The notes: generated from the letters alone by a model not told the origin. A stretch of DNA of 48,452 bases from Chloroflexota bacterium (GCA_005880875.1 VBJI01000083.1:1-48452), one strand, 5' to 3'. Counted from the stretch's first letter, positions 1,876-27,085 are shown. Translations and numbers: made by a program.

Positions 1876-3327
1876 GTGATGTCGCGTTTCCGCTCGCTCC
1901 GCTGGCGGCTCACGTTTCTCTATCTCGGACTCCTGTCTGTTCTTCTGCTGGCCGGCGGGGTGGCGCAGTATTTCGCCGCCCGCGAGGTGCTCTTCCGCAC
2001 CAACGCCGATGCGCTGAGCAGCGAGTACGCCGCCGATCTTCTGGCGTTCCGACGGCAGATCGGCACCACCGCGCGGCCAGCCGCGGCACTTCGGGCCCTG
2101 ATGCTCTCGAAACAATTCGCCACGGAGCTGGCCTCGGGCCATACCTCGGCGGCCATCTTCGATGCGAACGGCGGACAGTGGCAAGCCGTATCTGCCGGGA
2201 TCACCCCGAATCAGCCGCCTCCGACCCTGACCACGACGGATTACCTGACTGCGATCCGCACCAAACCGAAGGCTTACTACCTGGCCACCGCGGCCGATGG
2301 CTCCACGCATCTGGCCGTCCTCAACGTGATTCGCGTGGGGACCAAGCCTGTCGGGGTCGTGCAATTGTCGATCCCCACCGCCGTCATCGACCAGACATTG
2401 CAGGCGGACCGCCAGCTGGCGATCGTCGGCTCGCTCCTGGTGCTGCTGGTGGCTCTGCTGCTCAGCCCGCTGATCATCGGTCGCGGACTGCGACCGCTGG
2501 AGCAGATGTCGACCAGCGCTGGTGCGCTGGCAGCGGGCGACTATAAGCAGCGAGTCAGCGTGCCGAAAACCCAGGACGAAATCGGGAAACTCGCCGCCGC
2601 CTTCAACCAGATGGCGGCCGGGATCGATCAGGCGTTTGAGGTCCGCCGCCAGGCCGAGGCCGAGATGCGCCACTTCGTGGCGGACGCCTCCCACGAGCTG
2701 CGCACACCGCTAACCTCGATCGCCGGCTACATCGACGTGCTCGGCCGGCGGCAGAGCGTCGACGCGGAGACCCTGCAGGCGTCGCTGGCGGCGATGCAGC
2801 AGGAGAGCGCCCGGATGACGCGCCTGGTCAACGACCTGCTCACCCTCACCCGCTTCGAGTCGGGCAGGGCGACCCAGCGCCTGCGAGTGCCACTCGATCG
2901 ATTCATCAACCAGGCGCTCGACGAGCTCAGCCTCGCCGAGAAAGGCGCAACGGAATCCCGCGACATTCAGCCCGGCATCGCGGTGAATGCCGATCCCGAG
3001 GCCCTCAAGCAGGTCGTCACCAACCTGGCCCAGAACGCATTGAAGTATGCCCCGGGCGCTCCGCAGCGCTGGACCGTGTTCGCCGCGGACGGCCGCGCGG
3101 CCATCCGGGTCCAGGACGGCGGCCCGGGTATCTCGCGCCAGGATCTGCCGCACATCTTCGAACGCTTCTACCGGGGGGAGAAAGCACGCGACCGATCCAC
3201 CGGTGGGTCGGGGCTCGGTCTCGCCATCGCGAAGTCGATCGTCGAGGCGCACCACGGCAGCATCGAGGCCGAGAGCGAGCCCGGCAGCGGGGCTACCTTC
3301 ACCGCCTGGCTCCCGCTGGCCGCATAG
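1876..3327 (+). CDS. HAMP-domain sensor histidine kinase
   Basis: Two TM helices, HAMP domain, H-box ADASHELRTPL, N-box NALKY, G-boxes DGGPGI and GSGLGLAI. Confidence 0.93.
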   Translation: MMSRFRSLRWRLTFLYLGLLSVLLLAGGVAQYFAAREVLFRTNADALSSEYAADLLAFRRQIGTTARPAAALRALMLSKQFATELASGHTSAAIFDANGGQWQAVSAGITPNQPPPTLTTTDYLTAIRTKPKAYYLATAADGSTHLAVLNVIRVGTKPVGVVQLSIPTAVIDQTLQADRQLAIVGSLLVLLVALLLSPLIIGRGLRPLEQMSTSAGALAAGDYKQRVSVPKTQDEIGKLAAAFNQMAAGIDQAFEVRRQAEAEMRHFVADASHELRTPLTSIAGYIDVLGRRQSVDAETLQASLAAMQQESARMTRLVNDLLTLTRFESGRATQRLRVPLDRFINQALDELSLAEKGATESRDIQPGIAVNADPEALKQVVTNLAQNALKYAPGAPQRWTVFAADGRAAIRVQDGGPGISRQDLPHIFERFYRGEKARDRSTGGSGLGLAIAKSIVEAHHGSIEAESEPGSGATFTAWLPLAA

Positions 3328-3329
3328 GC

Positions 3330-3794
3330 TCAGCGCTTCAGGCGGACGATCGCCGAGATTTCGACCGGCGCGCCGAGCGGAAGTTCGCTGGTGCCCAGCG
3401 CCTGGCGGGTATGGCGGCCGCGCTCGCCGAAGACCTTGTAGATCAGGTCCGATGCCCCATTGAGGACCTTGGGCTGTTCTTCGAACCCGGCTGCCGATCG
3501 CACGAATCCACTCAGCTGAATGAACTGTTCGACCTGGTCGAGCGAGCCGGCGTGCTGCCGGATCAGCGCCATGATGTTGAGGGCGCAGATCTCGGCGGCT
3601 CGGGCGGCGTCCTTGACGCTCACGTCGGCGCCGACCACGCCCTTGACCTTCAGCTCCCCATTCCAAAACGGAACGACGCCCGACGTGTAGAGCAGCTCGC
3701 CAACCTGCTGCACTGGCACGTAGGAAGCCAGGGGCTTGGGCGGCTCCGGAAGCTCGATGCCGAGTGTTCGCAGGGTTGCCTCAGCGGAATCCAT
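3330..3794 (-). CDS. RidA/YjgF-family protein
   Basis: LGIELPEPPKPLASYVP...NGASDL...GRHTRQALG...LPLGAPVEI pattern. Confidence 0.9.
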   Translation of the reverse strand: MDSAEATLRTLGIELPEPPKPLASYVPVQQVGELLYTSGVVPFWNGELKVKGVVGADVSVKDAARAAEICALNIMALIRQHAGSLDQVEQFIQLSGFVRSAAGFEEQPKVLNGASDLIYKVFGERGRHTRQALGTSELPLGAPVEISAIVRLKR

Positions 3795-16405: not shown

Positions 16406-17060
16406 GATTCGAGAAGTCGAAGGTGATGGTGGCCGACTGCGATGCGTCGAAGAGGTTTCCGGCGAGCCGCGCCCGCCAGAGATCGTTTGTCGAGCTGTCG
16501 ATCCAGTAAGTCGCCTGGTAAGCGCCCTGCTCGCGGATCAGGGTGAGAAGTTGGTGGACACGGGCACCACTCAGCTGGCCGCTGACCCGGTAGGTGTCGT
16601 TCCCGTTGATTTTTTCTGAGTTGCCGCGGGAGACCGACGTCGTATCAGTCATGGCCGCGAACAGCCCGGAGTGCGGATCGAACAGCGTGCGAGCGTCGAA
16701 GAATTGGGCGACCTGGTCCGCGGTGAGCTGTTGCCAGCCTCCAGTGAACGACTTCAAATAGATGTTGTTTGAGGCGAAGATCACCTCGACTTCCAGCAGG
16801 ATGCCGCCCTCCTTCAAGTTCACCCGGGCCTGGAGGTCCGGTGGATGGGCATCGCCCTGGGCGCTCTGCACCGGCTCGCCGGCGCCGGTGAAGCCGCTGA
16901 TCTGCATTACGAAATGAAACCCCTTGAGGTCGAGCATGCGCTGGCTGGATTGTTTCAGCAACGTGGCGGCGTCAGGCGGGGGCGCCCCGCACGCACTCAG
17001 ACCGACGACGATGAGCACGCCGGCCGTCAGGGCTCGGTGCTGCGAGGCGCCGGCGTGCAT
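16365..17060 (-). CDS. LppX/LprAFG-family lipoprotein (LprG-like)
   Basis: Lipobox LSAC; DAATLLKQS..M..LKGFHF; C-terminal TITFDFSNHDHPVSVTPP. Confidence 0.8.
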   Translation of the reverse strand: MHAGASQHRALTAGVLIVVGLSACGAPPPDAATLLKQSSQRMLDLKGFHFVMQISGFTGAGEPVQSAQGDAHPPDLQARVNLKEGGILLEVEVIFASNNIYLKSFTGGWQQLTADQVAQFFDARTLFDPHSGLFAAMTDTTSVSRGNSEKINGNDTYRVSGQLSGARVHQLLTLIREQGAYQATYWIDSSTNDLWRARLAGNLFDASQSATITFDFSNHDHPVSVTPPPLG

Positions 17061-18952
17061 CAGGCCCTCAGGATACGGTCATCTCCGACCCGTCGCGTGA
17101 CTTTTTGCGCATCGAGCCATTCGAGCAAGGGAAGAACGTAGCGACGGCTCGATCCGAGCAGATCCCGTGCCGCCGCTACCGTCAGGGTTCGATGCTCGAT
17201 GAGGTGGCTTCGCAGGCGGCCAACCGCGTCATCGTAGGCCGAGCGGGCGAACAGGGTGTCGTCGTTGACCCGTACGACGCGTTCCTCGGCGACCAGGTAC
17301 TCGAGCAGCGCTGGGCTCAGCGGATGCCGGTGCAGCAGGTCGGACAGGGGCGGCGGATTGAAGGGCTGGCGCTCGAGCTCGACGATAAAAGCGGCCACCG
17401 CGGCCTCCTGCTCCGGGCTCAGCCCCTGGCGGTGCCCGGCCGCCGCCACCTCGCCACCACGCTCGGTCACCATTCCGGCGTCTATCAGTGCCACCAGGGC
17501 ACCACCGTAAAGCTCGGCGGGGATGCCACTGCGGCTGCGCAGCTCCTCGCGCGGCATGCCGCGACGAAGTGGGTGAGCCAGGTGGTAGGCACGCAGCGCG
17601 CTGTCGACTCGCGTCACCAGTCCCTCCCAGCGGTCACGGGTCAGCCAGGTGTTCGCCAGCCGGCGGACGGCGCCTCGCTCGGCGAGTGCCTGCATCACCT
17701 GATCGACCCTCGCGACGGGGAGAGCCAGGCGGTCCGCGAGCCCGGCGTCCGGTAAACCCCATGGATGCTTGGCGAGCTCCAGGACGGCTGCGGTCGCCGG
17801 GTCGGCATGCTCCCGCAAAGCGAGGTCTTTGAGCACGGCCAGGTCGCGACGACGGTGCCGACGCGGTGCGCGGTCGAGGATGACGCCACCCGCAACGGTC
17901 GCCGGGGGCGACGGCACCCGAAGGATGAAGCGATCGCCATCCATGGCCACCACCGGAGCGGCCGCGAACAGCTGCGCCAGAGCGTTCTGGCCGGGCTGGA
18001 TCTCCTCTGCTTCGAGCAGACTGAGCTCCACCATGACCTCCGCGGTCTCGTGGTACATCATCAGTTGCTGCCGGTGGTGCAGCGATTGTCCGGCGTCGGG
18101 CAACACGACGAGACGGGCGTCCAGCCGCCGGCTGACAGCCAGCGTCCCCGGCACGGTCAGGACATGACCCCGGTGGACCTCCGCGTGCGTAAGCCCGCTG
18201 AGGTTGACCGCGGTACGGCTGCCCGGGCGCGCCTCCTCGACGGCATGATTGTGCTGCTGCAGCCCGCGGATCCGCACCCGCCGCCCGGCGGGGAGCACCG
18301 CGACCTCGGCACCCAGGCGCAGCGCCCCTCCGACCAGCGTCCCGGTGACCACGGTGCCAAACCCGGACATGGCGAACGACCGGTCGACAGGGAGGCGCGG
18401 CCGACCGATGTCGGGCCGGAGCGTTGCACTGGCCAATTCGGCGTCGAGCGCAGCTCGAAGCTCGTCGAGCCCTTGTCCGGTGGAGCTCGACACCGAGACG
18501 ATCGGCGCCCGCTCCAAGGACGTGCCGCGGAGTAGTCCGCTGACCTCCTGCCGGACAAGCGCGAGCCAATCGTCCCCGACGAGGTCGACCTTGGTCAGCA
18601 CCGCCAGCCCGTGATCGATTTCGAGGAGGTCCAGGATGGCGAGGTGCTCGCGGGTTTGCGGCATCGGTCCCTCATCCGCGGCGATCACCAGCAGGACCGC
18701 ATCCATGCCGTGCACGCCGGCGAGCATGTTTTTGAGAAATCGCTGGTGGCCGGGAACATCAACGATGCCGACTCGTCGACCACTGGCCAGCTGCAAGTAG
18801 GCAAAGCCAAGGTCGATCGTCATCCCGCGGCGCTTCTCCTCCTCGAGCCGGTCCGGATCGATCTGGGTGAGCGCCTTCACCAGGGTCGACTTCCCGTGAT
18901 CGATGTGTCCCGCGGTGCCCACCACGAAGGAGCCACCGGCAAGGTCGGTCAC
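17060..18952 (-). CDS. selB: Selenocysteine-specific elongation factor SelB
   Basis: [33 protein letters not shown]; C-terminal winged helix ending SRRY..PLLE.LD....TRRVGD.R. Confidence 0.97.
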
Positions 18953-20307
18953 GAGAGCGCCCTGGCGATGGCGTCGAGCACGGGGTCGTCTTCACCGGAA
19001 AGCACCGTGCGGGGGTCCAGAAGAACGCGCTCCTGCTCGATCCGGCCGATCACGGGAGGATCATGCTCGCGCAGTCGCCGAAGCAGCTCCGCCGCGGTCC
19101 CGCGCCGAGGCGTGATCACGACCAGGCTGGTGGCCAGCCGCTCGCCCGGCAACGATCCACCGCCGACCGCCGACTCGCCGGGCGTAATGTCGACCGCCAG
19201 GCCAAGCTCGGACAGGCGTTTCTGCCAGGCCCGTGCCCGGCTGGCCACGGAGTCGCTCGAGGCGCCGATCATTTCCCAGACCGGCAATTCGCCAAAGGAC
19301 TGGGTGAGGTAGAGGTCGAGGGTAGCCGTGAGGGCCGCGATCGTCAGCTTGTCGACCCGCACCGCACGCGCCAGTGGGTGCTTCATCAGCCGGTCGACGA
19401 GCTCGGTCCGACCGAGCAAGAGACCAGCTTGCGGGCCGCCCAGCATCTTGTCTGCGCTGGCCGCCACCAGGTCGACGCCTGACTGCAGGCTGTCCTGAAT
19501 GCGCGGCTCCGCCGCAAGCCCAAAGCCTGTCGTCTCGATCAATGAGCCGCTTCCCAGGTCATGCAGCAGAAGGACGCCGTGCCGCCGGGCGAGGGCGGCC
19601 AGCGGTTTGAGCTCGACGCTCTCCGTGAAGCCGACGACCTGAAAGTTGCTGGCGTGCACTTTCATGATGGCCGCCGTCTTCGGGGTGATCGCGGAAGCGT
19701 AATCCTCGGCGCGGGTCCGGTTGGTGGTTCCCACCTCGACCATCCGGGCGCCTGACAGCCGCATGATCTCAGGCATGCGAAAGCCGCCACCAATCTCGAC
19801 CAGCTCACCGCGAGCGACGATGACCTCTTTGCCGCGAGCGAGCGCGGTCAACATCAGCAGCACCGCGGCAGCACAATTGTTGACCACAGCGGCCGCCTCG
19901 GCGCCGGTCAGGTAGCGGAGCGGCTCGGCCACCAGGTCATGCCGCTTGCCGCGGCGCCCGGTCTGCGGATCGAACTCGAGGGTCGAATAGCGCCCTGCGA
20001 TGCGAGCCGTCGCCTCGCCCGCCGCCGCCGCCATGGGCGCCCGCCCAAGGTTGGTATGCAGGATCACGCCGGTCGCGTTGATCACCGGCCGAAGACGCGG
20101 CAGGCGCAGTCCCTGGACGGTCGCTTCGACCCGGGCCCAGCGAGCCTGCGGCGCGTCGGTCACCGCCCGCCGGCGTTCATCCTCCAGAACGCGCTGCACG
20201 GCAAAGCGAACCAGCGGCCGCCCGTGAGCGGCGATCAATGTGGTTGCCGGCTCCTCTTCGAGGAGCTGGTGCACGCTGGGCAGCGCGCGGAGGGCATCCA
20301 TGCTCAA
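18949..20307 (-). CDS. selA: L-seryl-tRNA(Sec) selenium transferase
   Basis: VINATGVILHTNLGRAP, VNNCAAA, ELVEIGGGFR, EVGTTNRT, SADKMLGGPQAG. Confidence 0.97.
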   Translation of the reverse strand: MSMDALRALPSVHQLLEEEPATTLIAAHGRPLVRFAVQRVLEDERRRAVTDAPQARWARVEATVQGLRLPRLRPVINATGVILHTNLGRAPMAAAAGEATARIAGRYSTLEFDPQTGRRGKRHDLVAEPLRYLTGAEAAAVVNNCAAAVLLMLTALARGKEVIVARGELVEIGGGFRMPEIMRLSGARMVEVGTTNRTRAEDYASAITPKTAAIMKVHASNFQVVGFTESVELKPLAALARRHGVLLLHDLGSGSLIETTGFGLAAEPRIQDSLQSGVDLVAASADKMLGGPQAGLLLGRTELVDRLMKHPLARAVRVDKLTIAALTATLDLYLTQSFGELPVWEMIGASSDSVASRARAWQKRLSELGLAVDITPGESAVGGGSLPGERLATSLVVITPRRGTAAELLRRLREHDPPVIGRIEQERVLLDPRTVLSGEDDPVLDAIARALS

Positions 20308-21925: not shown

Positions 21926-21954
21926 TTGACACATCCAATGGGCTGTGGTACAAA
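21926..21954 (+). promoter_or_regulatory. Sigma70-type promoter with no downstream protein gene
   Basis: TTGACA (21926-31), 17-bp spacer, TGgTACAAA (21946-54). Both flanking CDSs are on the minus strand. Confidence 0.6.
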
Positions 21955-23188: not shown

Positions 23189-24286
23189 TCAGACGTTGAA
23201 GCGAAAGAGACAAACATCGCCGTCCTTGATCACATAATCGCGGCCTTCGAGCCGCACCTTTCCGCGCTCCCGGGCCGCGGCATAGGAACCGGCCGCGATC
23301 AGGTCATCGTAAGCGACGATCTCGGCTTTGATGAAGCCCCGCTCGATGTCGCTGTGGATCACGCCGGCCGCCTCGGGCGCCTTGGCCCCCTGACGAACCG
23401 TCCAGGCCCGGACCTCAGGATCGCCGGCTGTCAGGAAGGTGACGAGGTTGAGCAAACGGTATGCGGCGTGGATGAAGGTCGGGAGCGCCGCCTCTGTCAG
23501 ACCCGCGTCTTCGAGGAACACGGCAGCCTCCTCGTCCGGCAGTTCACGGATCTCCGCCTCCAGTCGTGCGGACAACGGGATGACCTCGGCATGCTCGGCG
23601 GCGGCTTCGCCGCGGAGGGCTTGCAGCTCGGGGGACTCTTTGCCAATCTGATCCTCACCGATGTTGGCGACGTACAGGACGGGCTTGGCGGTGAGAAAGG
23701 AGAAGCTCTTGAGGAGTTTGGCCTGCTCGGCGTCGAAGCTCAAGGTGCGAATTGGTTTGCCTTCATCGAGGTGAGCGGCCAGCCGGTCGAGCAGGTCGAG
23801 CTCCTCCTTCTCCTTGGCCCCTGGCTTGAGGCGGGCGGTGCCGGAAATCTTCTCCCGCCGCTTGTTGACTACGTCGAGGTCGGCCAGCGCGAGCTCGAGG
23901 TTGACCATCGCCATGTCACGACGCGGGTCTAGCTTGGCATCCACGTGCTGAACATTCGGATCGCTGAAGGCGCGCACCACCATGGCGAGGGCATCGAGCT
24001 CGCGGATGTTCGAGAGAAACTGATTTCCCATGCCCTCGCCGCGGCTGGCTCCGGCGACCAGGCCGGCCACGTCCACGAACTTCATGACCGTGGGCGTGAC
24101 CTTTTTCGGGTGATACATGTTGGCCAGCACGTCGAGTCGCTTGTCCGGGACCTCCACCATCGCGGTGTTCGGTTCGACCGTGCTGAAGGCGTACGAGGCT
24201 ACGCCCGCACCGGCGCGGGTTAGCGCATTGAACAATGTGGTCTTCCCGACATTGGGAAGACCAACGATTCCGACGCCGAGGCTAAT
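23189..24286 (-). CDS. ychF: Redox-regulated ATPase YchF (predicted ATT start)
   Basis: SLGVGIVGLPNVGKTTLFNALT, DVAGLV.GASRGEG.GNQFL, APEAAGVIHSD.ERGFIKAE, EGRDY...DGD. The ORF-track start (24235) truncates the P-loop. Confidence 0.96.
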   Translation of the reverse strand: MSLGVGIVGLPNVGKTTLFNALTRAGAGVASYAFSTVEPNTAMVEVPDKRLDVLANMYHPKKVTPTVMKFVDVAGLVAGASRGEGMGNQFLSNIRELDALAMVVRAFSDPNVQHVDAKLDPRRDMAMVNLELALADLDVVNKRREKISGTARLKPGAKEKEELDLLDRLAAHLDEGKPIRTLSFDAEQAKLLKSFSFLTAKPVLYVANIGEDQIGKESPELQALRGEAAAEHAEVIPLSARLEAEIRELPDEEAAVFLEDAGLTEAALPTFIHAAYRLLNLVTFLTAGDPEVRAWTVRQGAKAPEAAGVIHSDIERGFIKAEIVAYDDLIAAGSYAAARERGKVRLEGRDYVIKDGDVCLFRFNV

Positions 24287-24355: not shown

Positions 24356-24490
24356 TCAGTACTCGAGCGGATCTATCGGATCGATCAGGTCGCCGCGATA
24401 GCTGCGGTTTGGCAGCAGGTACCCGAGGTCATCAGTCGCCTCGTCATACGTGGGGTCGTCCGGATCATCAGGATGCGGCTCGGGGATCAT
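24356..24490 (-). CDS. Acidic 44-aa micro-protein
   Basis: GAGGAG/GGGAG RBS then ATG, 12 nt after the ssb stop. MIPEPHPDDPDDPTYDEATDDLGYLLPNRSYRGDLIDPIDPLEY (13 D/E). Confidence 0.55.
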   Translation of the reverse strand: MIPEPHPDDPDDPTYDEATDDLGYLLPNRSYRGDLIDPIDPLEY

Positions 24491-24502
24491 GCTCCCTGCT
24501 CC

Positions 24503-24892
24503 TCAGGCGCCCACCGGCTCGGCGACCGGCTGGACGGATTCGGTGACGGATTCGGTGACGGATTCGCTCTTCGGGCTCAGCATCTTCATCTGGTCCATCA
24601 CGACCTCGGTGGTGTAGCGGCGCAGGCCGTCTTTGCCGTCCCACTCGTGGCTCCGCAGCCGGCCCTCGGCGTAGATGAGTTTGCCGCGGGTCAGGAATTC
24701 CTGGCAGATGGTGGCCAACCGGTCAAACGCGACCAGCGAGTGGTACTGGACGTCCTCCTGCCGGTTTCCGTCGTCACCCTTCGAGTAGCTGTTGGTTGCC
24801 AGGCGGAGTTTCGCGATGGTGAGGCCCTTTGGGCTGGTCACCATTTCCGGATCGCGGGTCAGTCGGCCGACCAAAATCACACGGTTGACCAT
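24503..24892 (-). CDS. ssb: Single-stranded DNA-binding protein, short form (129 aa) without an acidic PF tail
   Basis: MVNRVILVGRLTRDPE...LATN...IYAEGRL...W...DG..RYTTEVV; ends AEPVGA. Confidence 0.93.
   Translation of the reverse strand: MVNRVILVGRLTRDPEMVTSPKGLTIAKLRLATNSYSKGDDGNRQEDVQYHSLVAFDRLATICQEFLTRGKLIYAEGRLRSHEWDGKDGLRRYTTEVVMDQMKMLSPKSESVTESVTESVQPVAEPVGA
24533..24566. repeat. 12-bp tandem repeat (~2.8 copies) in the ssb tail
   Basis: GACGGATTCGGT twice plus GACGGATTCG; encodes ESVTESVTESV. Confidence 0.85.
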
Positions 24893-24932
24893 CTCGTTCT
24901 CCCTTCCAATTTGATCCTGGAGTGAGCAGCGA

Positions 24933-25508
24933 TTAGTGGTGTTGGCTGGTAGGGACCACCTCCCTTGCATCGAGCAGCGGGAGTGGATCGACCGGCACGC
25001 CTGCGATGCGCACCTCGAAATGGAGGTGCGGTCCGGTACTGTTGCCGGTCGATCCCATGAGGGCGATCGCCTGTCCCGCGGCAACGACGTCGCCCGACTG
25101 CACGAGCGGCCAGTCGAGGTGCCCGTACAGCGTGCTGAGCTGGGGATCGCGCATGACCAGCAGGTACAGACCGTAGCCGCCACGCTCTCGGTGAAGACTG
25201 ACGACGCCGCCCGTCGCTGCGTAGACGGGCGTGCGGAGTGGCGCGGCCAGGTCGATGCCGCAGTGGAAATGGTGACTGGGGCATGCCGAGGACCACGGCT
25301 CGATCTCCAGCGAGGTGCAGCCGAAGGCCTGGGTCAAGGTGGCACCCCGCACCGGGGTGGTCAGCGAGCCGGGTCGCGACTGCTGCGCCTGCACCACCAT
25401 CCCGGCGAGCAGGAGGGGCACCGCCGCGAAGGCGGCACCGATCGCGAGCAACGGGCGTCGCCACGACCAGGCGAGCAGCGCGAGTCGACCTCCGGTGAAT
25501 AGCGTCAT
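24933..25508 (-). CDS. M23-family metallo-endopeptidase with N-terminal TM/signal
   Basis: HCGID (HxxxD), GGYG, TLYGHL, GSTGNSTGPHLHFE. Confidence 0.93.
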   Translation of the reverse strand: MTLFTGGRLALLAWSWRRPLLAIGAAFAAVPLLLAGMVVQAQQSRPGSLTTPVRGATLTQAFGCTSLEIEPWSSACPSHHFHCGIDLAAPLRTPVYAATGGVVSLHRERGGYGLYLLVMRDPQLSTLYGHLDWPLVQSGDVVAAGQAIALMGSTGNSTGPHLHFEVRIAGVPVDPLPLLDAREVVPTSQHH

Positions 25509-26380
25509 GCGTGCGACGCTCGGGTGGTGCCCATCGCGCTCTTGATTCCCTTCTTGACCATGCTCTCGGCGAAGTGCTCGGTCTTGCCCTCAAGGTGGGC
25601 GGAGGCGTTCATCAGGCCCGGGACTTTGATCAGGAGATAGAGCACGGCCACGCCGTAAAGCGCCTCAACCGGTCGCCCGCCAACCTGGTCGGCGAACAGA
25701 CTGGCGAAGCGCAACACCAGCACCTGGCCGAACTGCATGAAAACGGTCAGCAGAAAGAGACGCAGCCAGGACTGCGCATAGCGTTTGGTTTCCGGAAGGA
25801 TCATGCAGATGGCGGCCAGTGGGACGACCCCCAGCAGCACCGCGAGCAGGGCGAAACGCACGACGTAGGTCAGGGCAACGATCACGAGCATCACGGCGAT
25901 CGCGAGACGGATGACGATCTGAAAGAGCGGCTGGCCGAACGCACTGTTCATGGCGAACGTCCAGGGGAAGCGCGGCGAGCCACCCGGGAACGGCTGGGTC
26001 CACACGGTGTGGACCATGGCGTTGTTGAGGTCGATCGCCATCTGGCCGAACATCAGGCCGAAGTGCGCCATCACGATGGCTGCCATGGCCCGGGGCAGCA
26101 TGACTTTCAACGTGTAGTGCGGTCGAAACGAGGTGTGCTCCCACTGGCTCCGAAAGAATGCCCAGGTGAACACCAGGACCAGCAACAGGTCCGCCATGGC
26201 CAGCGTGAGATGAAACATCGCTTGCAGGGCGGGCTCCTCGGTCAACGGCCGGGGCGTCAGCGTCGACAGGTCGTGCGTACTCAGCAGATAGGTCTCGACC
26301 GTTCCCGCCACCGAGTCGCGGACGTCGTTGATCAGGTTGTTGAAGAACCCGGTGACCAGGCCGGAGAAGATCTCTAACAC
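25505..26380 (-). CDS. VirB6/TrbL-like polytopic membrane protein
   Basis: About 6 TM helices; LPR...IDLNN; YVVRFALLAVLLGVVPLAAICMILPETK.YA.SW...F....F.QF.Q; LLIKVP. This pattern resembles Gram-positive-type TrbL; it follows a pilin-like gene. Confidence 0.72.
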   Translation of the reverse strand: MLEIFSGLVTGFFNNLINDVRDSVAGTVETYLLSTHDLSTLTPRPLTEEPALQAMFHLTLAMADLLLVLVFTWAFFRSQWEHTSFRPHYTLKVMLPRAMAAIVMAHFGLMFGQMAIDLNNAMVHTVWTQPFPGGSPRFPWTFAMNSAFGQPLFQIVIRLAIAVMLVIVALTYVVRFALLAVLLGVVPLAAICMILPETKRYAQSWLRLFLLTVFMQFGQVLVLRFASLFADQVGGRPVEALYGVAVLYLLIKVPGLMNASAHLEGKTEHFAESMVKKGIKSAMGTTRASHA

Positions 26381-26422
26381 GATGGCGACCGGCTGAGCGA
26401 GATTGCAACAGGACGGCGGTCC

Positions 26423-26653
26423 TTAATGATTAACCGAGTCAACGAGCACGCGGACCAGGAGGCCAGCCATCTCGACACCAATGGTGCCGAAGACGATGCG
26501 ACCGATCCAGCGTTTGGCCTCCATCACACTCCGGGGCTCGATCGCCACCATCTTCCAGATGAAAGCGCAGACGAAGGCGAGCGCCCCGATGCTTCCGGTC
26601 AACCCCTGCGCATAGCTGGTCCACAGCTCGATCAGATGTTTGAGTTGGTCCAT
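26423..26653 (-). CDS. T4SS pilin (TrbC/VirB2-like), 76 aa
   Basis: Two hydrophobic helices joined by EPRSVMEAKRWI..IVFG, like the 'v..AK..i..a.iG' loop of T4SS pilins; TGATG overlap with the upstream gene. Confidence 0.62.
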   Translation of the reverse strand: MDQLKHLIELWTSYAQGLTGSIGALAFVCAFIWKMVAIEPRSVMEAKRWIGRIVFGTIGVEMAGLLVRVLVDSVNH

Positions 26654-27015
26654 CAGCGCTTTTTTTCCAGCTGCTCGGTGACGCGAGCTTCGACGAACCG
26701 CTCGATGGCGCCGGTCAGCCGCTGCAGAATGTCCCACTGATCGATCAGCAGGTTGCGATCCTGCTGACCGAATTTCTGGAAGAGCTCAGGGCCGAGCGCT
26801 GGACGGGCCGTGGGGGCCGCCGGCGCGGGCCGCGCGGGGAGCAGCGGGGTCACGACGGTCGGAATCACCGCGGGGCGACCGATGGGCAGCGTGAGCGGCG
26901 GCGGCCGAAAGGCGACCCGATGCGGTTGCATGGCGAGATGCAGGCCGACCCCCGTAAAGGCGGCCAGCAGCGTGACCTCGCCACCGATCAGGGCGAGCTT
27001 CCAGGGTGGGCGCAT
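26653..27015 (-). CDS. Hypothetical membrane-anchored protein (120 aa; TM, Pro-rich linker, helical end)
   Basis: GAGGAG RBS before ATG 27015; first gene of the pilin operon. Confidence 0.7.
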   Translation of the reverse strand: MRPPWKLALIGGEVTLLAAFTGVGLHLAMQPHRVAFRPPPLTLPIGRPAVIPTVVTPLLPARPAPAAPTARPALGPELFQKFGQQDRNLLIDQWDILQRLTGAIERFVEARVTEQLEKKR

Positions 27016-27055
27016 AGAGGACTCCTCGAACGGCTTGGCGGGCGGCAACGCTTGC

Positions 27056-27085
27056 CATCCTTACACAGATCTGTATATTTGTCAA
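27056..27085 (-). promoter_or_regulatory. Promoter of the pilin operon with a palindromic operator in the spacer
   Basis: TTGACA at 27085-27080; perfect palindrome ACAGATCTGT at 27065-27074 (imperfect 16-mer 27062-27077); weak -10 region (TAAGGAT); AT-rich patch. Confidence 0.55.

Follow-up and report, generated by a model that had tools for sequence, protein, structure and literature searches.

Between positions 27085 and 24356 of a 48,452-nucleotide contig from a Chloroflexota bacterium (GCA_005880875.1, VBJI01000083.1:1-48452; the whole stretch is called the window below), ORF calling found six closely packed open reading frames (ORFs) on the minus strand. They encode a small membrane-anchored protein, a 76-aa pilin candidate, a TrbL/VirB6-like protein, an M23 peptidase, a short single-stranded DNA-binding protein (SSB) and an acidic peptide. 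The reading that we favour, at slightly better than even probability, is that this operon forms the envelope-and-single-stranded-DNA (ssDNA) half of a repressor-controlled DNA-uptake (natural competence) system that derives from a type IV secretion system (T4SS) and belongs to the core genome of the class Dormibacteria. We favour it because a pilus, a wall hydrolase, a channel, a tail-less SSB, DprA, ComM, RadC and RecA appear to stand under one signal. The class is uncultured, and all functional statements made here are drawn from sequence. The source genome (G000) is a metagenome-assembled genome (MAG) of 2.53 Mb in 250 contigs with 75% completeness, and the window is its contig C243.

Conservation across the class

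We compared the operon with its counterparts in 61 relatives, which are MAGs and not mutually independent. ORFs in the relatives were picked by a GC3-guided procedure, and the genome counts take in the unpublished G018, G058 and G307, on which alone no claim is based. A scan for the closest loci returned 285 stretches encoding a relative of the 76-aa protein. Of the 61 relatives, 56 have the TrbL-like protein, in 21 of 22 genera and in four families (f1 to f4), almost always as a single copy; its identity was ~83% within the genus, 55–77% within the family and 29–42% within the class, and none of the matches contained an internal stop. The gene order pilin–TrbL–M23–SSB is preserved in all four families, while the flanks vary between them. 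The M23 gene is syntenic in 11 of 12 loci compared at family or class level (L028 has no M23 match), and the SSB gene stays with the module in every family. Upstream of the pilin gene sits the small anchored protein, which has positional analogues in families f2–f4 and identities of 62–86% within the genus and 48–50% within the family.

Most conserved of the operon genes is that of the 76-aa protein, with a mean column identity of 69% over the four families. Its profile matched 31 of 34 genomes inside the class as against one weak match among 267 in the rest of the phylum, and found 138 proteins, mainly fragments, among 1.84 billion representatives. Within the genus, the pilin-like gene had the lowest dN/dS (0.015), followed by those of the SSB (0.08), TrbL (0.10), the acidic peptide (0.17), the anchored protein (0.22) and M23 (0.25); the comparison genes gave 0.04 (part of ychF) and 0.17 (epimerase). 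One genus, g11, stands apart, as TrbL, the pilin, the second SSB, and the VirB4 orthologue and helix-turn-helix (HTH) protein described below were all not found there. Distribution, synteny and dN/dS identify the operon as a core gene set of Dormibacteria, vertically inherited and under purifying selection. An initial annotation of the window had proposed a domesticated module and not a decaying integrative conjugative element (ICE), and this view is borne out: the module is class-wide, single-copy and syntenic, identity follows taxonomy, selection is not relaxed (dN/dS 0.015–0.25) and complete ICE versions occur only as patchy extra copies.

A putative promoter element shared with DNA-processing genes

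At 27057..27085 on the minus strand, ahead of the operon, lies a putative promoter-operator. It consists of a perfect −35 hexamer, TTGACA (27085–27080), a TGn-extended −10-like hexamer, AAGGAT (27062–27057), and a dyad, ATACAGATCTGTGT, in the spacer between them (27076–27063). A simple sigma-70 promoter scan did not call this minus-strand promoter because its −10 hexamer is weak. The palindrome ACAGATCTGT (27074–27065) occurs once in the genome, with 0.7 occurrences expected by composition. Taken alone it is unremarkable, and its significance comes from conservation: TCTTGACAAATAyAC-N6-GTGTAAGGATG is found upstream of the operon in all 19 of the f1 loci that reach that far. We infer that the conserved element is both promoter and operator.

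To find further copies we searched the 61 genomes with the pattern TTGACANATAYACNNNNNNGTG (motif consensus TTGACAnATAyAC-N6-GTG), allowing at most one mismatch and taking the reversed pattern as a control. The search returned 108 sites versus a single control match, with sites in 35/36 f1, 3/8 f2, 3/8 f4 and 0/8 f3 genomes. A site lies 0.6–1.6 kb upstream of the TrbL gene on the same contig in 28 of the 34 f1 genomes with TrbL, and ~8 kb upstream of VirB4 on the same strand in ten f1 genomes. At a distance of at most 40 nt, sites also precede 21 of 23 f1 genes for an HTH protein of the XRE family and two f4 HTH genes. The module promoters of f2 have the same architecture, and in f4 a site stands upstream of cpaB-virB4. 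The HTH protein, which has 89 aa in G000 (C81:3910-4176), is 93–97% identical within the genus and 61–70% identical in f2 and f4. It was not found in f3 (0/8) or in g11; since the motif is likewise missing from f3 (0/8), the distribution of the protein matches that of the motif.

G000 itself contains six sites at up to two mismatches, versus none for the control. They stand at the operon under study, at the HTH–Tad locus (contig C81), at a RadC-like gene (C53; PF04002, 7e-38), at the gene of a lipoprotein with two PLD domains (C7; PF13091) and at comM, which is directly followed by dprA (C209). The sixth (window 21926–21947, plus strand, two mismatches) falls in the ~600-nt gap between the bactofilin gene and lplA, with no clear downstream gene and no Rfam match. 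The same classes of target gene recur in other f1 genera. The comM site is kept in G006 and G035, and in G045 (f4) comM has a related dyad and a −10 without the TTGACA −35. The dyad is present at recA in three of three f1 genomes and in two f2 genomes; recA itself did not turn up in the 75%-complete G000. Control of recA seems to have been rewired within the class, as the f3 and f4 genomes examined carry a LexA-type CGAAC-N4-GTTCG box where f1 and f2 carry the ACAC-N6-GTGT dyad.

A few sites fall outside this set. One on C106, upstream of a LysX-like gene and beside an apparent ArgR-like gene (read from its translation), was judged unrelated. An RtcB-linked site in G032 has one mismatch and lacks the GTG, and no clear downstream ORF was seen at sites G028:C109 and G035:C28:53848.

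The module had been expected to be regulated, and what emerged is a promoter-operator apparently common to dprA, comM, radC, recA and the VirB4/Tad locus. Such company would favour DNA import over export.

A VirB4 homologue in a Tad-like locus

No VirB4 accompanies the channel genes in the operon or elsewhere in the window, and the ATPase had been supposed to be encoded elsewhere. This fits what we found on another contig: a VirB4-type family search of G000 gave one weak match, on C66, to a 744-aa protein (G000:C66:1964-4198) that scores 41.6 bits on PF19044 (P-loop_TraG) and whose C-terminal domain matches the VirB4 of Thermoanaerobacter (PDB 4ag5) at an E value of 7e-34. PF03135 (CagE_TrbE_VirB) had no match in G000. 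An assignment of this ORF as FtsK was ruled out, as Pfam returned P-loop_TraG, AAA_10 and DUF87 with no FtsK_SpoIIIE, and PDB returned VirB4. Orthologues occur in 44 of the 61 genomes, with identities of 79–89% within the genus, 58–77% within the family and 35–44% within the class.

The gene ends a Tad-like locus in the order XRE-family HTH, PrgI::CpaE, CpaF, TadB, TadC, TadE-like, PKD protein, CpaB/RcpC, VirB4, which is split in G000 over contigs C81 and C66. CpaF, TadB/TadC, the TadE-like protein, CpaB and the CpaE-like ATPase are present; Flp pilin and prepilin peptidase lay outside the search. CpaF is the only T2SSE-type ATPase seen, VirB11 as such not having been searched. At the head of the locus, an N-terminal PrgI (VirB3-like) membrane domain is fused to a CpaE/ParA-type ATPase (G000:C81:2269-3648, locus L165; L051:585-1943; L047:609-1934), and in family f3 a PrgI-like gene lies directly 5' of VirB4. 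With VirB4 closing the Tad locus that it heads, the PrgI::CpaE protein resembles a physical hybrid of T4SS and Tad. An ImmA/IrrE-type M78 protease was considered as a partner of the XRE protein and ruled out, being present in one of five genomes only.

In G006 (L162, G006:C37:48600-66000), a ~13-kb low-GC island (57–61% GC) takes the place of the Tad/VirB4 genes behind the conserved XRE gene and promoter. The island encodes DUF4238, a SocA/Panacea antitoxin, a second HTH protein and a GNAT protein, and SSB fragments also lie on the contig. The position looks like a replacement hot spot.

Operon proteins and T4SS ancestry

The reading of these genes as one minus-strand operon held up, including both of its start–stop overlaps: at TGATG (26655–26651) the TGA of the anchored ORF overlaps the ATG of the 76-aa ORF, and at ATGA (25508–25505) the stop of the TrbL-like gene overlaps the M23 start. 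The first ORF was called at 26653..27048 (131 aa from TTG 27048). Its protein more likely starts at ATG 27015 behind GAGGAG, giving 120 aa, with one transmembrane (TM) helix (hydrophobic residues 18–36), a Pro-rich linker and a helical C-terminal part. A Pfam search gave no family, in keeping with its earlier description as an anchored protein of unknown kind.

The second protein (26423..26653, 76 aa) had been described as two-helix and pilin-like. The two hydrophobic helices stand, and an AlphaFold2 (AF2) model folds them into a helical hairpin; the likeness to a pilin is less firm. Against PF18895 (T4SS_pilin) the protein scores 13.8 bits, below the cut-off of 26.6. Matches to this family were full-length but sub-threshold in three of four members (13.8–20.1 bits; E 0.065, 7e-4 and 2e-3), and the fourth member tested had none. 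An hhalign comparison with ICE T4SS pilins gave a probability of 62% (E 7.5e-5, 54 columns). Foldseek found generic helical hairpins only, a non-specific result, and PDB sequence-profile searches with the pilin and with TrbL gave no matches. We regard the protein as a candidate for a diverged VirB2-like T4SS pilin.

Support for the TrbL/VirB6-like identity of the third protein (25505..26380, 291 aa, polytopic) is better. It matches TrbL_4 (PF19597) above the cut-off of 27 (37.8 bits, E 1.9e-9; 36.6 bits in the genome-level search) and also TrbL (PF04610). It has at least five hydrophobic helices, and the three top PDB folds for its AF2 model (pLDDT 77) were TrwI/VirB6 of R388, albeit weakly (E 0.04–0.07, probability 0.98–0.99, TM ~0.4). 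The fourth (24933..25508, 191 aa) is, as first proposed, an M23 (LytM-type) peptidoglycan endopeptidase by its PF01551 match (3e-29), with the HxxxD (H82) and HxH (H161) zinc-site motifs intact and an N-terminal TM helix as an anchor.

The SSB (24503..24892; PF00436, 1.2e-23, 100 bits) has 129 aa, counted from ATG 24892–24890, and not the 120 aa first given. The proposal that it is a second SSB agrees with the relatives: 53 of 61 have at least two SSB matches, the module copy and a separate copy elsewhere. The separate, housekeeping copy has ~150 aa, scores ~135 bits and ends in ...DVDPEDIPF, whereas the module copy, an OB fold, ends in ...AEPVGA without the acidic C-terminal tip. G000, which is incomplete, yielded the module SSB only. 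That this is the housekeeping SSB was ruled out by the better-scoring second copy in those 53 relatives. A tail-less second SSB of this kind resembles SsbB of Bacillus.

The last ORF (24356..24490) encodes a 44-aa acidic peptide that is kept in f1 loci and confined to that family, with no Pfam family. Its C-terminus, ...RGDLIDPIDPLEY, resembles the tip of the housekeeping SSB, ...RDVDPEDIPF, and the peptide could represent an SSB tail that has become detached or acts in trans. The ORFs of the module SSB and the peptide are in frame in the window, and a single gene read through the TGA was considered; it was ruled out, since in loci of the same genus and family the peptide starts at an ATG of its own, in a frame that varies with respect to the SSB. 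In one relative (L005, G028:C6, ~3027–3407) the acidic peptide forms an in-frame fusion with a shortened SSB OB domain, and one soil DNA contig omits 80 nt between 24488 and 24569.

Beyond the class, matches to the TrbL profile occurred in 29 of 267 genomes, in a patchy pattern, sometimes in several copies and in larger proteins. Nine such TrbL_4 loci were retrieved and eight annotated, two of these being second copies within the class. A VirB4-type ATPase is encoded in every one of the eight, and a Replic_Relax relaxase in six; the most complete loci have a PEGA protein, TrbL_4, an NlpC/P60 or SLT hydrolase, T4SS_pilin (PF18895), PrgI, VirB4, a primase, a coupling protein and Replic_Relax. 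Because TrbL_4 genes elsewhere sit in such ICE-type sets, the module is, on homology, a derivative of a monoderm-type ICE T4SS from whose operon VirB3/VirB4, the coupling protein and the relaxase are gone. One of these loci is a complete ICE-type T4SS that exists besides the domesticated module in a relative of the same genus as the window (L043, G003:C22:93747-113746: methylase, T4SS_pilin, TrbL, a 99-aa protein, VirB4, SLT, coupling protein and Replic_Relax).

A model and its alternatives

In the DNA-uptake system that we favour, a small XRE-family repressor would bind the ACAC-N6-GTGT dyad that lies in the spacer of strong TTGACA promoters, and its release would switch on at least six transcription units together: the operon; the XRE gene and the Tad-pilus locus with the VirB3-like::CpaE protein and VirB4; comM-dprA; radC; recA; and the secreted PLD-family lipoprotein. 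Capture of DNA would fall to the Tad pilus and opening of the wall to the anchored M23 peptidase, and the VirB2-like and VirB6-like proteins would form a conduit, with VirB3/VirB4 where these are present. The tail-less SSB would coat the incoming single strands for DprA, RecA and ComM. Within this scheme we infer the pairing of repressor and operator, the way in which DNA moves, what each protein does and the membrane channel, which may be ComEC or the VirB6-like protein.

Several observations weigh against this reading. Fourteen of the 56 TrbL-bearing relatives, all f1, show no VirB4 orthologue. In G006 (95% complete) and four others a neighbouring CpaB orthologue is missing as well, so that the whole Tad/VirB4 locus was not found. 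The locus often ends at contig edges, so part of its absence may be an effect of assembly or of gaps in the MAGs. The module is nevertheless conserved equally where the locus was not found, so that a strict dependence on that ATPase is ruled out. In family f3 the module occurs without motif or HTH protein, the pairing of XRE protein and dyad is based on position and co-occurrence only, and recA in the regulon also fits a response to DNA damage. ComEC, present in four of four good relatives, was not found in G000 (75% complete), and no dyad at up to three mismatches was seen in the 1.5-kb comEC flanks of four genomes, where a promoter farther upstream is possible. The pilin and VirB3 assignments are weak. 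Expression is represented by a single 182-nt contig from an RNA library (soil metatranscriptome), 100% identical to the window at 24804–24985, which takes in the end of the M23 gene, the 40-nt gap and the adjoining part of the SSB gene. It is a weak hint of co-transcription across the M23/SSB junction, since such RNA libraries can contain DNA; RNA cover was seen in 3/30 bins of one library, bins without cover being uninformative.

The alternative that survives best, though still unlikely, is a stress or DNA-damage repair regulon in which the T4SS-like and Tad genes serve some other envelope function, such as adhesion, aggregation or secretion. XRE-type repressors often control damage-induced modules. 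The exchange of a LexA-type box (f3/f4) for the dyad (f1/f2) at recA would suit such a regulon, as would the failure to detect the dyad at comEC, and comM and radC are described as also acting in repair (PMC1635313). LexA is, however, still present in f1, so a separate SOS system exists there, and none of the six sites in G000, at its 75% completeness, precedes a classical SOS gene (uvrA, uvrB or dinB). DprA and a tail-less SSB are typical for the processing of incoming DNA, and the extracytoplasmic PLD lipoprotein, pilus and wall hydrolase in the regulon suggest an extracellular target.

We consider it quite improbable that the operon acts on the donor side, as a chromosomal conjugation-like or DNA-release device passing ssDNA to neighbours, a possibility that the initial annotation had raised as cell–cell transfer. 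All parts appear to descend from conjugative T4SSs, wall hydrolase and VirB6 channel belong to the donor side, and SSB accompanies many conjugative elements. Yet the relaxase family of the related ICEs (PF13814, other relaxase families not having been searched) was found in one of five genomes (G006) and the TrwB-type coupling protein (PF10412) also in one of five (G045), neither of them in G000 (75% complete), and the co-regulated dprA, comM and recA work on incoming DNA. Nothing like an oriT was noticed, no search aimed at one having been made.

Just as improbable, in our estimate, is a function unrelated to DNA, with a T4SS remnant co-opted for protein secretion or cell–cell interaction and the SSB kept by operon inertia. 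Patescibacteria offer a parallel, as they are described as keeping VirB4, PrgI, VirB6 and VirB2-like proteins without a relaxase, essential for epibiotic growth (PMC12102498). In Dormibacteria, by contrast, the SSB stays in the operon in four families despite changed flanks and with a dN/dS of 0.08, the putative operator ties the operon to DNA-processing genes, and genomes of 1.5–4.4 Mb are not suggestive of an epibiont.

Extremely improbable is a decaying remnant of an ICE: conjugative ancestry and an operon without VirB3, VirB4, coupling protein and relaxase would agree with decay, but the class-wide, single-copy and syntenic occurrence, identity that follows taxonomy, matches without stops, the dN/dS values, the conserved promoter and the housekeeping flanks do not.

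Comparison with known systems

The closest functional parallel to the proposed DNA-uptake system is ComB of Helicobacter pylori, described as a DNA-importing T4SS without VirD4, VirB11 and relaxase (PMC7366825). Like ComB (comB2-4, comB6-10), the Dormibacteria system is chromosomal, lies in two loci and has VirB2/3/4/6-type parts, although VirB2 and VirB3 are weak here; a VirD4-type protein and a relaxase were not found in G000, ComEC is encoded elsewhere, and DNA import is the proposed function (PMC7366825 for ComB). It differs in its monoderm-type ICE lineage (TrbL_4, T4SS_pilin, PrgI), in the M23 hydrolase and dedicated SSB of its operon, and in a VirB4 that lies inside a Tad-pilus locus with a VirB3-like::CpaE fusion. 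No VirB7-10 core turned up, no search for it having been made. Unlike ComB, the system is kept across a whole class and not a species group, and it is known here from genes alone. The ancestry in monoderm-type ICEs suggests an origin independent of ComB.

The T4SS of Patescibacteria (candidate phyla radiation, CPR) is similar in holding VirB4, PrgI/VirB3, VirB6 and PF18895-type pilins in the core genome without a relaxase, and Patescibacteria are described as a sister lineage to Chloroflexota/Dormibacterota (PMC12102498). According to the same source, the CPR parts are mostly clustered around virB4, with variable pilin arrays and a link to epibiosis. Dormibacteria instead have one highly conserved pilin-like gene, an SSB in the operon and an apparent regulon with dprA, comM, radC and recA. 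A bolder interpretation, which we hold to be rather improbable, joins the two: a hybrid import machine with the Tad pilus and the VirB3/VirB4 motor in one locus and a separate VirB2-like/VirB6-like/M23 conduit with SSB, sharing ancestry with the Patescibacteria T4SS. If that were true, T4SS-based DNA acquisition would have existed in the common ancestor of Dormibacteria and Patescibacteria, and the CPR system may at its root be a DNA-uptake device.

The ICE-borne monoderm T4SSs of Chloroflexota (for example, L038, L040 and L043) resemble the module in placing TrbL_4 beside a wall hydrolase and a small pilin. They differ in carrying PrgI, VirB4, primase, coupling protein and Replic_Relax, in having NlpC/P60 or SLT in the place of M23, and in their patchy, sometimes multi-copy occurrence (29/267 genomes outside the class).

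For the regulon, the nearest likeness is the competence (CRP-S) regulon of Haemophilus influenzae, which is described as joining the uptake machinery with SSB, RadC, DprA and ComM (PMC1635313); with it and with the streptococcal ComX regulon, Dormibacteria would share the principle of one cis-element over these functions. In Dormibacteria the element is an ACAC-N6-GTGT dyad within a TTGACA promoter, probably a repressor site, the predicted uptake machine consists of Tad and T4SS parts, and no element was detected at comEC. A Tad locus in a member of the Terrabacteria also has a precedent in Micrococcus luteus, where such a locus with a single ATPase is reported to be necessary for natural transformation (PMC6668835). 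The text available for that system describes no T4SS-derived partners, unlike the Dormibacteria locus with its VirB4 and VirB3-like domain.

T4SS-based DNA import has been described as unique to Helicobacter (PMC7366825). If the favoured reading is true, the Dormibacteria system would be the second such case, of independent origin. Joined to a Tad pilus, it would be fixed in the core genome throughout an uncultured soil class that is abundant worldwide. It would then add to the known routes to natural transformation, and competence in uncultured Terrabacteria could be predicted from its gene set and cis-element. Homologous recombination has been reported for abundant soil populations, among them a Dormibacteraeota population (PMC7305173), and the system would be a candidate mechanism for it. 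The regulon offers a defined and testable predicted repressor–operator pair in a lineage without genetics. We found no prior description in the literature on Dormibacterota type IV secretion, TrbL, competence, natural transformation or conjugation/pilus, supplementary tables excluded (Table S3 of PMC7305173 may list competence loci).

Genomic surroundings

The operon, with a GC content of 0.625–0.666, does not differ from the remainder of the window. YchF, an epimerase and a GGDEF protein directly adjoin it. Farther out, the side of YchF has a CCA enzyme, SelB, SelA, an M50 peptidase, bactofilin and LplA, and the side of the epimerase and the GGDEF protein has ABC transporters, thymidine kinase and GH31. 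All 16 flanking ORFs tested over a range of ~12 kb are housekeeping or metabolic, with no integrase, relaxase, VirB4 or coupling protein among them, so that the surroundings are as first described on both counts. An Rfam scan of the whole window found no family.

Two features of the neighbourhood are of separate interest. The selenocysteine machinery genes selB and selA occupy window positions 17060–20307, ~4 kb from the operon. The adjoining ychF apparently starts with ATT (window 24284–24286, minus strand), with an in-frame TAG three codons upstream; a start at TTG 24235, the first canonical one, would cost the protein its GLPNVGKTT P-loop, and at the position of the window's ATT the ychF of relatives has ATG-ACC-CTC-GGC (MTLGVGIVG...).

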